Shown here one piece after another: positions 1,766 to 5,121 of a stretch of DNA of 64,000 nt. The DNA is taken from the NCBI GenBank assembly GCA_902566515.1, contig CACFIX010000004.1, forward strand, positions 4,092 through 68,091. Direction: 5' to 3'. The stretch's first letter is position 1; the number at the start of each line of letters is the position of its first letter. The DNA comes from an uncultured Candidatus Actinomarina sp. (GTDB lineage Bacteria > Actinomycetota > Acidimicrobiia > Actinomarinales > Actinomarinaceae). The position numbers and the translations under genes were made by a program. Below the pieces are notes generated by a model. That model saw only the letters and a list, made by a program, of their open reading frames with translations. It had not been told where the DNA came from and ran no database searches.

Positions 1766-2496
1766 TGTAGGGCAAATCCATAAGGTAATTCAAGCCGATT
1801 TTCTTCCATTATTTTTTTGTCTTTAAGAATCTCATAGGTTTTCATATCAGTAGTAATTTCTCCATTATTTAAGATAATACTCCTGTCACAAATCTCTAGA
1901 GCCATTGGTAAATCATGAGTTACTAATATAAGTGAAATTTCCAAACTTTTTAGAATTTCGATTAATTCTCTTCGAGATGCTGGATCAAGATTAGAACTAG
2001 GTTCATCTAGAACTAGAAGCTCAGGTTCTGATGCTAAAACACTAGCAATAGCAACTTTTCTTTTTTGGCCAAAGCTTAAATGGTGTGGAGGCTTATCAAT
2101 GAAATTATCCATCTTAACTTTTTTTAATGCATTTATAGCATTATTTTCAGCTTCTTCATTTGAAAAGCCAAAGTTCTTAGGTCCAAACATAACATCTTCT
2201 AAAACTGTAGGCATAAATAATTGGTCATCTGGGTCCTGGAAAACTAAACCTACAGTTTTACGAATTCTGCTAATGTTTTGTTCATTATATAAAAAATTAT
2301 CAATTTTAATTTTTTCATCAAGATTTCCAAGAATTCCATTTAAATGAAGAATAAGAGTTGTTTTTCCTGCACCATTTGGACCAAGAACTGCAATTCTCTC
2401 GTTTTTCTCAATTTGAAAATTAATATTATGTAAAGCTTTAAATCCATCTGGATACTCAAAATTTAAATTATTTACACTTAGGTAGCTATTATTCAT
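1750..2496 (-). CDS. cbiO: ECF-type Co/Ni transporter ATPase (CbiO/NikO)
   Basis: GPNGAGKTT, FQDPDDQLF, LSFGQKRK, LVLDEP; follows a CbiQ-like gene. Confidence 0.88.
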   Translation of the reverse strand: MNNSYLSVNNLNFEYPDGFKALHNINFQIEKNERIAVLGPNGAGKTTLILHLNGILGNLDEKIKIDNFLYNEQNISRIRKTVGLVFQDPDDQLFMPTVLEDVMFGPKNFGFSNEEAENNAINALKKVKMDNFIDKPPHHLSFGQKRKVAIASVLASEPELLVLDEPSSNLDPASRRELIEILKSLEISLILVTHDLPMALEICDRSIILNNGEITTDMKTYEILKDKKIMEENRLELPYGFALHHLEE

Positions 2497-3257
2497 ATGA
2501 GAAATCTTTCCACAATAGTTGTAGCAATTGAAATAAATGATAAATAATAAAGAAGAGAAGACTTTTTAAATTCTCTTTTCTTAAGTTCAATTGAACCGTT
2601 GAAACCTCTGGATATCATTGAGTTATAAACTCTTTCACCTCTTTCATACCCTCTTATCAACATTGCACCAGAAGCATATGCAATTGGTTTTAATCCCCTT
2701 AATCCTTTTTGATCATAACCTCTTGATTTCATTGCAACTTTAACTCTTTTAAATTCATCAATAAAAACATCAATATATCTAATTGCAAAAGATAATATTG
2801 AAATTAACAACGGTGAAATTTTTAATTTTTGCAAACCATAAATAATCTCAATATTTGATGTAGTAGCAGTTAAAACAATTGCTAACGAAACACACAGTGT
2901 AATTTTAATTAATATTGAAATCATTTCATTGAAACCAGTTTCATAAATAGGCAATGAAAAAAATTCAAACATCACAGTACTATCTCCTTTACTTAAAAAA
3001 GGGAGAAATAAAGCAAACAATACAAAGGGTATGTCGATTGAAAGTCTTTTAAAATATGTAGATATTTTTATTTTAGATAAATACAACAACAATAATACAA
3101 CGAAAGTTTGTACAATTATTGCTAAATTTTTCTCAAGGCTTAAGAAAGCAATAGACAAGACAATTATAAATGTTGTTGCAATTTTGATTTCAGGTCTGGT
3201 GTTACTGAGAACAGAGTTTCTGTGAATTTCTAGATGATGCGAGTGTGTTGTTTCCAT
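2493..3257 (-). CDS. cbiQ: ECF-type Co/Ni transporter T component (CbiQ/NikQ)
   Basis: His-rich N-terminus, multiple TM segments, AMKSRG and ERGERVYNSMISRGF motifs. Confidence 0.88.
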   Translation of the reverse strand: METTHSHHLEIHRNSVLSNTRPEIKIATTFIIVLSIAFLSLEKNLAIIVQTFVVLLLLYLSKIKISTYFKRLSIDIPFVLFALFLPFLSKGDSTVMFEFFSLPIYETGFNEMISILIKITLCVSLAIVLTATTSNIEIIYGLQKLKISPLLISILSFAIRYIDVFIDEFKRVKVAMKSRGYDQKGLRGLKPIAYASGAMLIRGYERGERVYNSMISRGFNGSIELKKREFKKSSLLYYLSFISIATTIVERFLI

Positions 3258-3261
3258 ATAA

Positions 3262-3298
3262 AAATATGTTAATGCAAATTATTTGCAATAACATATTT
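3262..3298. promoter_or_regulatory. 37-bp inverted repeat with a Nur-box-like core (aTGCAA-N5-TTGCAA, 3272..3288) over the cbiQO promoter
   Basis: aaatatgttaatgcaaat-t-atttgcaataacatattt: 18-bp arms with one mismatch; contains a minus-strand TAACAT -10 (3266..3271) 8 nt before the cbiQ ATG. Confidence 0.7.
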
Positions 3299-3707
3299 AT
3301 TTACACTTTTTACATATACCTGAATATATAAAATGATGATTTATAATCTTAAAATTACTATCTTTAATTAAAATTTTGTTAATTTCCTCTTTAGTTTCTG
3401 TTTTCAAATCAGAGATTGAATTGCATGAATCACAAATAATATGGTTATTATCATATTCACTTTTTAAATAATATATTCCTGAACCATGAACTTGGTGAGA
3501 GTGTTCAACGATGTCTACTTTTTCTAACAACTCTAGAGTTCTATAAACAGTTGCCAAATCTATATTTTGATCTTTTTTCAATGCTAAATTATGTAATTTT
3601 TCAACAGTAAAATGTTCATGTCCCGCAGTTTCTAAAATGTTACAAATCACCTCCCGCGGACTAGTGATTCTGTGACCCCTTTTTTTTAATTCATTAACGA
3701 AATCCAT
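3297..3707 (-). CDS. Fur-family metalloregulator, Nur-like
   Basis: TVYRTLELL helix, EHSHQVHG, two CxxC pairs, HHFIYSG; ATG 3707 or TTG 3713 start. Confidence 0.9.
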   Translation of the reverse strand: MDFVNELKKRGHRITSPREVICNILETAGHEHFTVEKLHNLALKKDQNIDLATVYRTLELLEKVDIVEHSHQVHGSGIYYLKSEYDNNHIICDSCNSISDLKTETKEEINKILIKDSNFKIINHHFIYSGICKKCK

Positions 3708-3741
3708 ATTCAAGTATATTATAAGGTTTGATAAGGGACTT

Positions 3742-4215
3742 ATGAAAAGAAAATTTCTAAAGATACTTAATCGGTATAGTTTAATTTATTTACCTTTAGG
3801 ATGGGTTATTGGATTAGCAATTTTCTTTTTTGCATTTGAGCCTTCAGCTGTCTTATATTTTCTAAGTTTTTTTGTTCTTGGAATATTTTATTTTCTGATT
3901 TCATATACTTCAAATCGCATAATGGTTGACTCGTCTTATTCATATTCAGATTATGAAAATTCAATTATTGAATTTTACTCTGATTATTGACTAGGTTGTA
4001 CTGCTTCAAAATTCATAGTTGATGAATTTAAAAAAGAAAATCCAGAAGTTTTTTTTGTATCAATTAATGCTAGTAAACAAAAAGATCATCCATTTATTGA
4101 TGAGTACAAATTATTCAATACTCCAACATATGTTTTGATAAATAATAAAGGTGAAAAAATAGTCAGAAGAGTTGGCACATTTAATCCAAGCTATTTTAAA
4201 AAATATTTAGCTTAA
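3742..4215 (+). CDS. Membrane-anchored thioredoxin-fold protein with an in-frame UGA, probable selenoprotein (U83xxC86)
   Basis: Frame stays open for 74 codons past TGA 3988..3990: IIEFYSDY-U-LGCTASKFIVDEF...LFNTPTYVLINNKGEKIVRRVGTFNPSYFKKYLA*; N-terminal hydrophobic helices; stop overlaps the convergent csaA stop. Confidence 0.82.
4009..4029 (+). promoter_or_regulatory. Candidate bacterial SECIS hairpin
   Basis: Perfect 8-bp stem AAATTCAT/ATGAATTT, loop AGTTG with G at loop position 2 followed by U, 26 nt between the UGA and the loop. Confidence 0.6.
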
Positions 4216-4547
4216 GATACTCTATCGCCTAATTCTGAACCCTCTTCAGGGGACAACAAAAGCACATCTCCATTATTTGATGTTGAACCTAATACTAGAC
4301 ACTGGCTCATTATTGGACCAATTTGCTTATCACCTAAATTAATAACAGCTATACATTTTTTATTCGAAAGACTATTTAAATCATAATTTGTAATTTGAGC
4401 ACTTGTTTTTTTGAGGCCAATTTCTACACCAAAATCAATAGTTAGAATATAAGCAGGTTTTATAGCTTCTTCAAATACTTCAGCTTTAATAATTTTTCCA
4501 ACTCTAATATCTAATTTAGAAAATAAACCTACATTTTCACTATTCAT
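4212..4547 (-). CDS. csaA: CsaA/Trbp111 tRNA-binding OB-fold protein
   Basis: LDIRVGKII, KKTSAQIT, NLGDKQIG..MSQCLVLG, GDRV; likely start is ATG 4547 rather than 4628. Confidence 0.85.
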   Translation of the reverse strand: MNSENVGLFSKLDIRVGKIIKAEVFEEAIKPAYILTIDFGVEIGLKKTSAQITNYDLNSLSNKKCIAVINLGDKQIGPIMSQCLVLGSTSNNGDVLLLSPEEGSELGDRVS

Positions 4548-4575
4548 ATAACAAACATAATTACATACTGATAAC

Positions 4576-5121
4576 ATGTCAAAAATTTTCATCCTAAGTG
4601 CAGGAACAAGTCCTGACTCATATAACAATCAACTGGCGAAGCACCTAAGTACTTATTTTGAAAAAAAAGGTTTAGAAAATGTTCTGTTCGATAATCTGTA
4701 TTCTGATATTCCATTTTTACTGGATACTTATGATGATGTTCCAGAAAAAATTCTTGAAATGAGAAAATCATTGGAGATATCTGAAAAAATAATTATTTTT
4801 AGCCCCGTTTACAACGGTGGGTTTTTAGCACATTTAAAAAATACTTTAGATTGGCTGTCACTTGCATATGATGGAAACCGTTATAGTGCGTTATTTAAAG
4901 AAAAAAAAGTTGCAGTTATTACAACCGTTAAGGGGGCTGGAGGTAATGCCCAAAAAGCATTTGAAATTCTAAGTATGCAATTATCAAACTATGATTTGCA
5001 AGTTTTTGAAAAATTTCATTTAATCACTAAATCGGAACATCAAAATGAAAAAAGTATTCTAAATAATCAAGATGTTATTGAATCATTGAATAGCTATGTA
5101 GAAGAGTTTTTAGATTTATAG
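4576..5121 (+). CDS. NAD(P)H-dependent FMN reductase (flavodoxin-like)
   Basis: SAGTSPDSYN, SPVYNGGFLAHLKNTLDWLS. Confidence 0.85.
   Translation: MSKIFILSAGTSPDSYNNQLAKHLSTYFEKKGLENVLFDNLYSDIPFLLDTYDDVPEKILEMRKSLEISEKIIIFSPVYNGGFLAHLKNTLDWLSLAYDGNRYSALFKEKKVAVITTVKGAGGNAQKAFEILSMQLSNYDLQVFEKFHLITKSEHQNEKSILNNQDVIESLNSYVEEFLDL

Follow-up and report, generated by a model that had tools for sequence, protein, structure and literature searches.

A thioredoxin-like gene with an in-frame TGA

We analysed a 64,000-nucleotide stretch of DNA from an uncultured Candidatus Actinomarina sp. (contig CACFIX010000004.1 of assembly GCA_902566515.1, positions 4,092 to 68,091 of the forward strand; hereafter the window) and, within it, a thioredoxin-like gene at 3742..4215 whose frame contains a TGA. 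The window lies within an 837-kb, 35-contig assembly of 32% GC that is rated 69% complete. The gene opens with ATG at 3742, reaches the in-frame TGA at 3988..3990, which is codon 83, and continues for 74 sense codons to TAA at 4213..4215; an initial annotation of the locus had given the same coordinates and had read the TGA as a selenocysteine (Sec) codon followed by a selenocysteine insertion sequence (SECIS). Distant members of the family were collected by a profile search of 1.8 billion representative proteins, and 26 proteins make up the alignment referred to below as A2. The features of the gene are as follows.

3742..4215, plus strand: complete gene, very probably for a selenoprotein, of 157 codons plus TAA, with UGA (predicted Sec) as codon 83
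3778..3912, plus strand: predicted two-helix membrane hairpin, residues 13-57 (AlphaFold2 helices 13-31 and 36-57; hydropathy and charge)
3958..4212, plus strand: thioredoxin-fold domain, residues 73-157 (Pfam, AlphaFold2 and Foldseek), including the T127-P128-T129 loop
3988..3990, plus strand: UGA putatively read as selenocysteine, U83, at the first position of the U-L-G-C redox motif, that of the nucleophile; TGA in 29/29 orthologs
3997..3999, plus strand: TGT codon of Cys86, the putative resolving cysteine of UxxC; invariant in A2, TGT or TGC in 28/29 orthologs
4009..4029, plus strand: predicted SECIS-type hairpin with stem 4009-4016 / 4022-4029, a 7-bp core at 4010-4016 / 4022-4028 and the apical loop AGUUG at 4017-4021
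4123-4125, plus strand: Pro codon of the T127-P128-T129 loop (P128), invariant in A2

The residues around the TGA read IIEFYSDY-U-LGC-TASK, and farther downstream the readthrough product contains NTPTYVLI, whose invariant proline bears out the thioredoxin-type Pro motif suggested for it at the outset. The assignment of the TGA to the first cysteine position of a thioredoxin motif likewise holds, as 20 CxxC homologs have Cys aligned there. Without readthrough the 221 bp from 3991 to 4211 would be non-coding in a tightly packed region, exactly the gap to which the initial annotation had pointed. No in-frame start codon, from which a separate ORF (open reading frame) might originate, lies shortly 3' of the TGA at 3988..3990. 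A separate downstream gene was considered and ruled out, since the TGA is followed by no start codon and falls within the thioredoxin fold. A promoter and terminator scan of 3550-4350 returned six candidates against 4.7 expected from shuffled sequences, which is not above expectation.

Conservation and selection on both sides of the TGA

When 36 other species genomes of the genus were searched in six frames, 31 yielded the gene, each match having exactly one internal TGA; no homolog turned up in 24 genomes from other genera of the same class. All 29 full-length Actinomarina orthologs, which are 45-94% identical, consist of 157 codons with TGA at codon 83. At dS above 1, the ratio of nonsynonymous to synonymous substitution rates (dN/dS) is 0.19 upstream of the TGA versus 0.23 downstream of it (codons 84-157), and codons 104-157, outside the hairpin, give 0.28. 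Purifying selection thus persists 3' of the TGA and past the hairpin, and we conclude that the downstream part is translated. The TGA is seen in independent ocean metagenome contigs as well as in the 29 species genomes, and its presence at one and the same codon in both excludes a sequencing error. Among the findings that, according to the initial annotation, would speak against Sec are reads with TGC or TGT at this codon and a nonsense mutation confined to this strain among Cys-containing orthologs. The comparison yields neither picture: TGA is kept across the species and metagenome contigs, it occupies codon 83 in every ortholog of the genus, and the Cys forms occur in other lineages.

These data bear on the reading of the TGA as a true stop, in which the locus would be a pseudogene or the product of a sequencing error and either an 82-residue membrane peptide or nothing would be made. 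Standard gene callers do stop the ORF at 3990, and protein databases hold 82-residue and C-terminal fragment entries (P0080, P0081), which is the truncated or split annotation that had been foreseen for this gene. Set against this are the TGA and the unchanged 157-codon frame in 29 species and also in independent metagenome contigs, a dN/dS of 0.23 after the TGA at saturating dS, and a thioredoxin fold that is intact across the TGA, so that we regard the probability of a true stop as practically nil.

A different possibility is that the TGA is read as a standard amino acid (Trp, under code 4, or Gly, under code 25) or that readthrough is unspecific, with no Sec involved. Many full-length 157-residue public entries carry W at position 83 and would seem to speak for it. 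This W83 is, however, an artefact of gene callers that use TGA=W on short, low-GC contigs, as every entry checked is marked 'with_TGA=W'. Within the whole assembly TGA terminates 166 of 718 ORFs of at least 150 residues, with a median in-frame extension past the TGA of five codons; TGA is an ordinary stop in this Actinomarina genome, and a genome-wide reassignment is excluded by these figures. The only tRNA with anticodon UCA in the assembly is tRNA-Sec, the homologs have Cys at this position and not Trp or Gly, and the codon is followed by a hairpin specific to the Sec forms. We therefore consider decoding as a standard amino acid extremely unlikely. The W-bearing full-length entries are P0002-P0064, P0120, P0126 and P0136; the others are 82-residue or C-terminal fragments.

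A SECIS-type hairpin downstream of the UGA

Beyond the UGA the transcript can form a hairpin with an 8-bp stem, whose arms AAAUUCAU and AUGAAUUU enclose the loop AGUUG. The stem begins 18 nt past the UGA and the loop 26 nt after its A, so that the 8-bp hairpin reported earlier at 26 nt was correctly described, with the distance counted to the start of the loop. Bacterial SECIS elements have been described as stem-loops immediately 3' of the UGA whose small apical loop contains a G (Zhang, Fomenko & Gladyshev 2005, PMC1088965), and the present hairpin, with its 8-bp stem and small G-containing loop, fits this description. Applying as criteria a stem of at least 7 bp, a loop of 4-6 nt with GU at loop positions 2-3 and a start 10-30 nt after the TGA, we found a comparable hairpin after 0.44% of all TGA trinucleotides in the genome and after 2 of the 219 TGA stops that end ORFs of 100 residues or more.

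Within the genus, codons 89-95 (TCA AAA TTC ATA GTT GAT GAA) are essentially frozen at synonymous sites; the flanking invariant residues Y79, S80, D81, Y82, L84, G85, A88 and A110 are each encoded by two to four codons. Where the stem does vary, pairing is preserved: in ortholog L028 a U-to-C change in the 5' arm is matched by A-to-G in the 3' arm, and L027 carries the G.U intermediate. In a joint alignment that includes the distant forms, 93% of cells are paired and four of the eight pairs show compensatory, two-sided changes. The covariation score was reached by none of 500 shuffles, and slid registers fall to 13-60% paired.

Three distant Sec forms that are 21-24% identical (P0120, P0136 and P0126) also have TGA at this position. 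At two of these Sec loci, L083 and L086 (21% identical), a hairpin at the same offset has the same loop AGUUG on other stems (AGCCUAU/AUAGGUU and AAGCCUGU/AUAGGCUU); in the third, L096 (24% identical), the hairpin varies, its loop being CGUUG and one pair of the stem mismatched. No hairpin occurs at that offset in L092, L089 and L094, the three Cys forms whose DNA was examined. The hairpin is thus, as predicted from these alignments, an RNA element of the SECIS type.

Selenocysteine machinery in the genome and the genus

The machinery was surveyed in 41 genomes of the genus, that is, 40 relatives and this assembly. The assembly itself encodes a tRNA-Sec with anticodon tca (C32:1287-1379; 75.4 bits versus RF01852) and, on another contig, a selD gene (C9:12085-13125, plus strand; 367 bits) that has its own Sec codon at SHGAG-U-ACK. 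Across the survey, selA is above cut-off in 34 of the 41 genomes, tRNA-Sec reaches at least 70 bits in 36 and selD with one TGA is present in 39; a selB-like gene of ~560 residues adjoins selA in the genus. The closest relative, G033, has all four Sec genes, with selA and selB adjacent. The Sec form of selD in 39/41 genus genomes (relatives L045-L073) differs from the figure in a recent preprint on the genus, 'Actinomarina, resolved', which gives a Sec form in only about half of the genomes (bioRxiv 10.64898/2026.04.03.716425).

The initial annotation had inferred that this streamlined actinobacterium decodes Sec and had noted that a lack of Sec machinery in the genome or its relatives would tell against it. 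With selC and selD in the genome, and selA and selB in G033 and most of the genus, such a lack is not what we observe, and the conserved TGA, the selection, the hairpin and the machinery together support Sec decoding as the probable capacity of this organism.

Weighing the selenocysteine assignment

Several observations weigh against Sec at codon 83. selA and selB were not found in this 69%-complete assembly. In G033, however, the two genes lie in an 18-kb neighbourhood of 20 ORFs, none of which has an ortholog in this assembly save for one 43%-identical, probably paralogous match, and since the whole neighbourhood is without a counterpart here, we attribute the absence of selA and selB to an assembly gap. 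The selB-like gene scores 184-223 bits where the whole gene was matched, below the NCBIfam cut-off of 242. Two relatives, G009 (one contig) and G010 (five contigs), have the TGA gene, tRNA-Sec and the Sec form of selD together with no selA or full-length selB match. The V-D dipeptide encoded by the loop sequence GUUGA is conserved in the Cys forms also, so that conservation of the loop is partly protein-driven; this does not apply to the covariation of the stem. An Rfam scan of 3700-4300 (E <=10) returned chance matches of snoRNA type only and no SECIS family. The structure after the UGA of selD in the same genus is of another kind, as it pairs the UGA itself and has no loop in common with the present hairpin, and therefore lends no support to a genus-wide SECIS consensus. 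In ortholog L017 (G032:C29) codon 86 is TTT (Phe), giving U-L-G-F with no resolving Cys. Finally, Sec incorporation is a prediction from the sequence.

On two of these points there are side observations. According to the preprint, selA sits at the margin of a hypervariable region, a place at which fragmented assemblies are prone to break (bioRxiv 10.64898/2026.04.03.716425); with selA in such a position, G009 and G010 may be non-closed assemblies. A metagenome protein of the L017 lineage, P0023, keeps Cys86, and the TTT of L017 represents either an error in that one genome or a true loss of the resolving Cys.

With both sides considered, we hold it very likely that 3742..4215 is a genuine, single, intact selenoprotein gene in which UGA codon 83 specifies Sec. 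In the mechanism that we propose, the UGA at codon 83 would be read as selenocysteine during translation, with the AGUUG hairpin serving as a bacterial SECIS that brings SelB and Sec-tRNA(Sec) to the ribosome. Sec83, positioned where the first helix of the thioredoxin fold begins, would act as the attacking nucleophile of the U-L-G-C redox centre, and its partner in the selenenylsulfide so formed would be a substrate cysteine or else a sulfenic acid; Cys86 would then resolve the bond to Sec83, and the two N-terminal helices would keep the enzyme at the membrane. We infer Sec insertion, redox chemistry, substrate and membrane orientation, the chemistry from the fold and the motif.

Fold, active site and membrane anchor

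The AlphaFold2 model, computed from an alignment of 13 sequences, has a predicted local distance difference test score of 90.8 and shows a compact thioredoxin fold behind helices 2-11, 13-31 and 36-57. The fold comprises strand 73-79, helix 84-99, strand 104-109, helix 117-121, strands 129-134 and 139-144, and helix 149-153, and U83 immediately precedes helix 84-99. The top Foldseek matches in the PDB are thioredoxins (probability 1.00, TM-score ~0.7-0.8 on the target). Pfam Thioredoxin (PF00085) is matched at 23.7 bits versus a cut-off of 23.5, and Thioredoxin_2 at 24.2 bits versus a cut-off of 27. Judged by fold and motif, the product is most likely a membrane-tethered thiol-disulfide oxidoreductase, and most likely a reductase.

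With canonical TrxA (PF00085/TIGR01068) and the gamma domain of DsbD the protein shares the fold, a redox motif where helix 1 begins and the conserved T-P loop. It differs from TrxA in having Y-U-L-G-C instead of WCGPC, and scores 29.3 bits with TIGR01068 versus a cut-off of 96.8. Motifs of the family (CVAC, CLGC and CVGC) and weak NCBIfam matches resemble the C-terminal domain of DsbD; the score with DsbD is nevertheless 18 bits versus a cut-off of 330. Its own two-helix anchor and the N-x-Y-S motif set the protein apart from both. A TrxA equivalog and a DsbD identity were accordingly rejected, with scores far under the cut-offs and the motif YULGC. Among the curated selenoprotein families of thioredoxin-like fold, NCBIfam (release 20) gave no match at E <=0.01 to SaoT NF040730, HUIPC NF047660, GOS_C NF045500, VPGUxxT NF041383 or WAxxUGC NF041054.

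Ahead of the anchor come a basic N-terminal helix (residues 2-11) and the conserved N-x-Y-S (N10, Y12 and S13); these three residues are invariant in 13 sequences of the genus, and N10 and S13 occur in at least 90% of A2. Actinomarinales members carry four to five Lys/Arg before helix 1, and the short acidic loop that joins the two helices has none. Under the positive-inside rule this bias predicts both termini and the thioredoxin domain to be cytoplasmic, so that charge counts alone favour a cytoplasmic thioredoxin domain in Actinomarinales. Most of the distant homologs show the reverse: the N-terminal tail is uncharged, the loop contains two to four Lys/Arg and an acidic segment follows helix 2. 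These sequence patterns suggest that the thioredoxin domain has opposite membrane orientations within one family, in Actinomarinales as against most other members. In extracytoplasmic anchored redoxins (TlpA/ResA/CcmG-like proteins and DsbD gamma) the thioredoxin domain is outside; the charge bias in Actinomarinales predicts it inside, and that in most of the distant homologs the opposite.

A wider family with cysteine forms

Members of the wider family have ~160 residues, with the N-terminal N-x-Y-S, two hydrophobic helices and the thioredoxin domain. Twenty members of A2 have Cys at the position of the TGA, their motifs including CVAC, CLGC and CVGC, so that a search for TGC, TGT or TGA at codon 83, as the initial annotation had suggested, yields TGA in all 29 orthologs and Cys in the CxxC homologs. 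The Cys homologs are readable by table 11 with no recoding; one comes from a Chloroflexota metagenome-assembled genome, and JGI has given others the name 'thiol-disulfide isomerase/thioredoxin'. A maximum-likelihood tree divides the Sec forms between two clades, each with Cys forms as its sister group (support 98/96 and 92/87). One Cys form, P0089 (CAGC, 30% identical), is flanked by CbiM-CbiQ-ABC and a Fur-family regulator on one side and by tRNA_bind and FMN_red on the other, and thus matches the gene order of the window; it is a positional (syntenic) Cys ortholog from a related lineage.

The Cys forms also bear on a reading in which Sec insertion is real but inefficient or conditional, and the 82-residue two-helix peptide is a second, possibly regulatory, selenium-dependent product. 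In bacteria, release factor 2 is a competitor of Sec insertion at UGA codons, which argues in favour of this reading, as does the N-terminal part alone, a well-formed membrane hairpin in the model. The sequence data, however, give no hint of a function for a truncated product, and in the Cys homologs the N-x-Y-S and two-helix module is always joined to the thioredoxin domain, so that we judge a second product highly unlikely. A single full-length selenoprotein remains our preferred reading of the gene.

More tentatively, these proteins may constitute a distinct family not described as such, defined by N-x-Y-S, a two-helix hairpin and a (C/U)-x-[GA]-C thioredoxin domain and spread over several phyla, with at least two Cys/Sec switches and, in both Sec clades, an AGUUG hairpin on (I/V)-V-D codons; in Actinomarinales the thioredoxin domain may have shifted from the outer to the cytoplasmic side of the membrane, beside a Fur-family regulator and a CbiMQO-type metal transporter. 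We consider this possible, yet on balance rather doubtful.

Gene neighbourhood

The gene is enclosed by two genes on the opposite strand.

3297..3713, minus strand: Fur-family regulator gene, divergent (Pfam FUR 95 bits); adjacent in 29/29 orthologous loci and in the Cys-form locus L092
4212..4628, minus strand: tRNA-binding-domain gene, convergent (Pfam tRNA_bind 43.6 bits); same arrangement in 29/29 loci

The divergent start codons of the Fur-family and thioredoxin-like genes are 28 bp apart, and the stops of the thioredoxin-like and tRNA_bind genes overlap at 4212-4215 (TTAA), so that the region after the UGA is tightly boxed in. The five-gene block of CbiQ, Fur-family regulator, thioredoxin-like gene, tRNA_bind and FMN_red (window 2493-5121) is kept in 29/29 species (L004-L032) and in L092. 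The Fur-family regulator is thus a conserved neighbour of the thioredoxin-like gene, an association of position only.

Other candidate selenoprotein genes

Two further ORFs of the genome contain a candidate Sec codon. A SelW-like ORF (C2:88486-88722, plus strand) of 78 residues has TGA at codon 11 (MEIKLEFCVV-U-NYTPRA) and matches Pfam Rdx at 58.8 bits; the hairpin after its UGA, UCGUGC-AGUUA-GUACGA, has a loop near-identical to that of the thioredoxin-like gene. An AhpD/CMD-like ORF (C3:32578-33138, plus strand) has TGA within NECEY-U-IRAH, a CxxU motif, matches Pfam CMD at 30.9 bits and is provided with the post-UGA hairpin UCUCC-GGUC-GGAGA. GU-containing apical loops are therefore common to the SelW-like (AGUUA) and AhpD-like (GGUC) candidates. 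The most abundant selenoprotein family in the preprint, of 78 amino acids, is called 'uncharacterized' there (bioRxiv 10.64898/2026.04.03.716425); the present SelW-like ORF looks like a member of it, and the family would then be the well-known SelW-like CxxU protein.

Discussion

The family has been catalogued as a predicted selenoprotein since 2005. The supplement of the Sargasso Sea selenoproteome study (Zhang, Fomenko & Gladyshev 2005, PMC1088965) lists AACY01000927, AACY01011298 and AACY01037136 under 'Thioredoxin', and all three belong to the same family, with ...IIEFYSDY-u-LGCTASKFIV.... AACY01000927 is identical with the L024 ortholog in each of its 113 listed residues, and AACY01011298 matches L028 including the compensated hairpin. 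The ORF models of that study start at internal codons, so that N-x-Y-S and both membrane helices are missing, and the entries are given no organism and are pooled with ordinary soluble thioredoxins.

For the genus as a whole, the preprint credits all 84 complete genomes with selA, a divergent selB, selC and a Sec-containing selD, and gives ~5 selenoproteins per genome, predicted by deep-Sep and sorted into 69 'families' (bioRxiv 10.64898/2026.04.03.716425). The machinery agrees with that of the present genome and of our genus survey. The text names the 78-aa family, selD and a K07090 family only, with no mention of a thioredoxin, and no SECIS elements were found there with Rfam models. The Global Ocean Sampling (GOS) selenoproteome (Zhang & Gladyshev 2008, PMC2398784) includes 'Trx-like 1/2/3', abundant marine UxxC thioredoxin-fold selenoproteins with many Cys homologs, and its top families (SelW-like, SelD, Trx-like and AhpD-like) mirror the candidate set of this genome. 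In the part of its supplement text that is accessible, the motif of the Actinomarina protein was not found, and no GOS Trx-like subfamily was matched to the protein.

Current understanding is unchanged in so far as the prediction of this selenoprotein dates from 2005 and the report of the Sec trait in the genus from 2026. What the present analysis adds to the earlier work is a full-length gene model with its anchor, an N-x-Y-S family with Sec and Cys forms, covariation of the SECIS, and the mistranslation at W83. As for the databases, standard annotation pipelines truncate the protein at 82 residues, split it, or mistranslate Sec as Trp by applying code 4 to short low-GC contigs. The erroneous entries that result number in the hundreds, for a gene whose host is among the most abundant bacteria of the surface ocean. 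Compensatory changes and the contrast between Sec and Cys forms make the hairpin a clean natural test set for models of bacterial SECIS elements, which Rfam lacks. For the organism, the gene would be one of the handful of selenoproteins that explain why a genome of ~1 Mb retains the whole Sec machinery.

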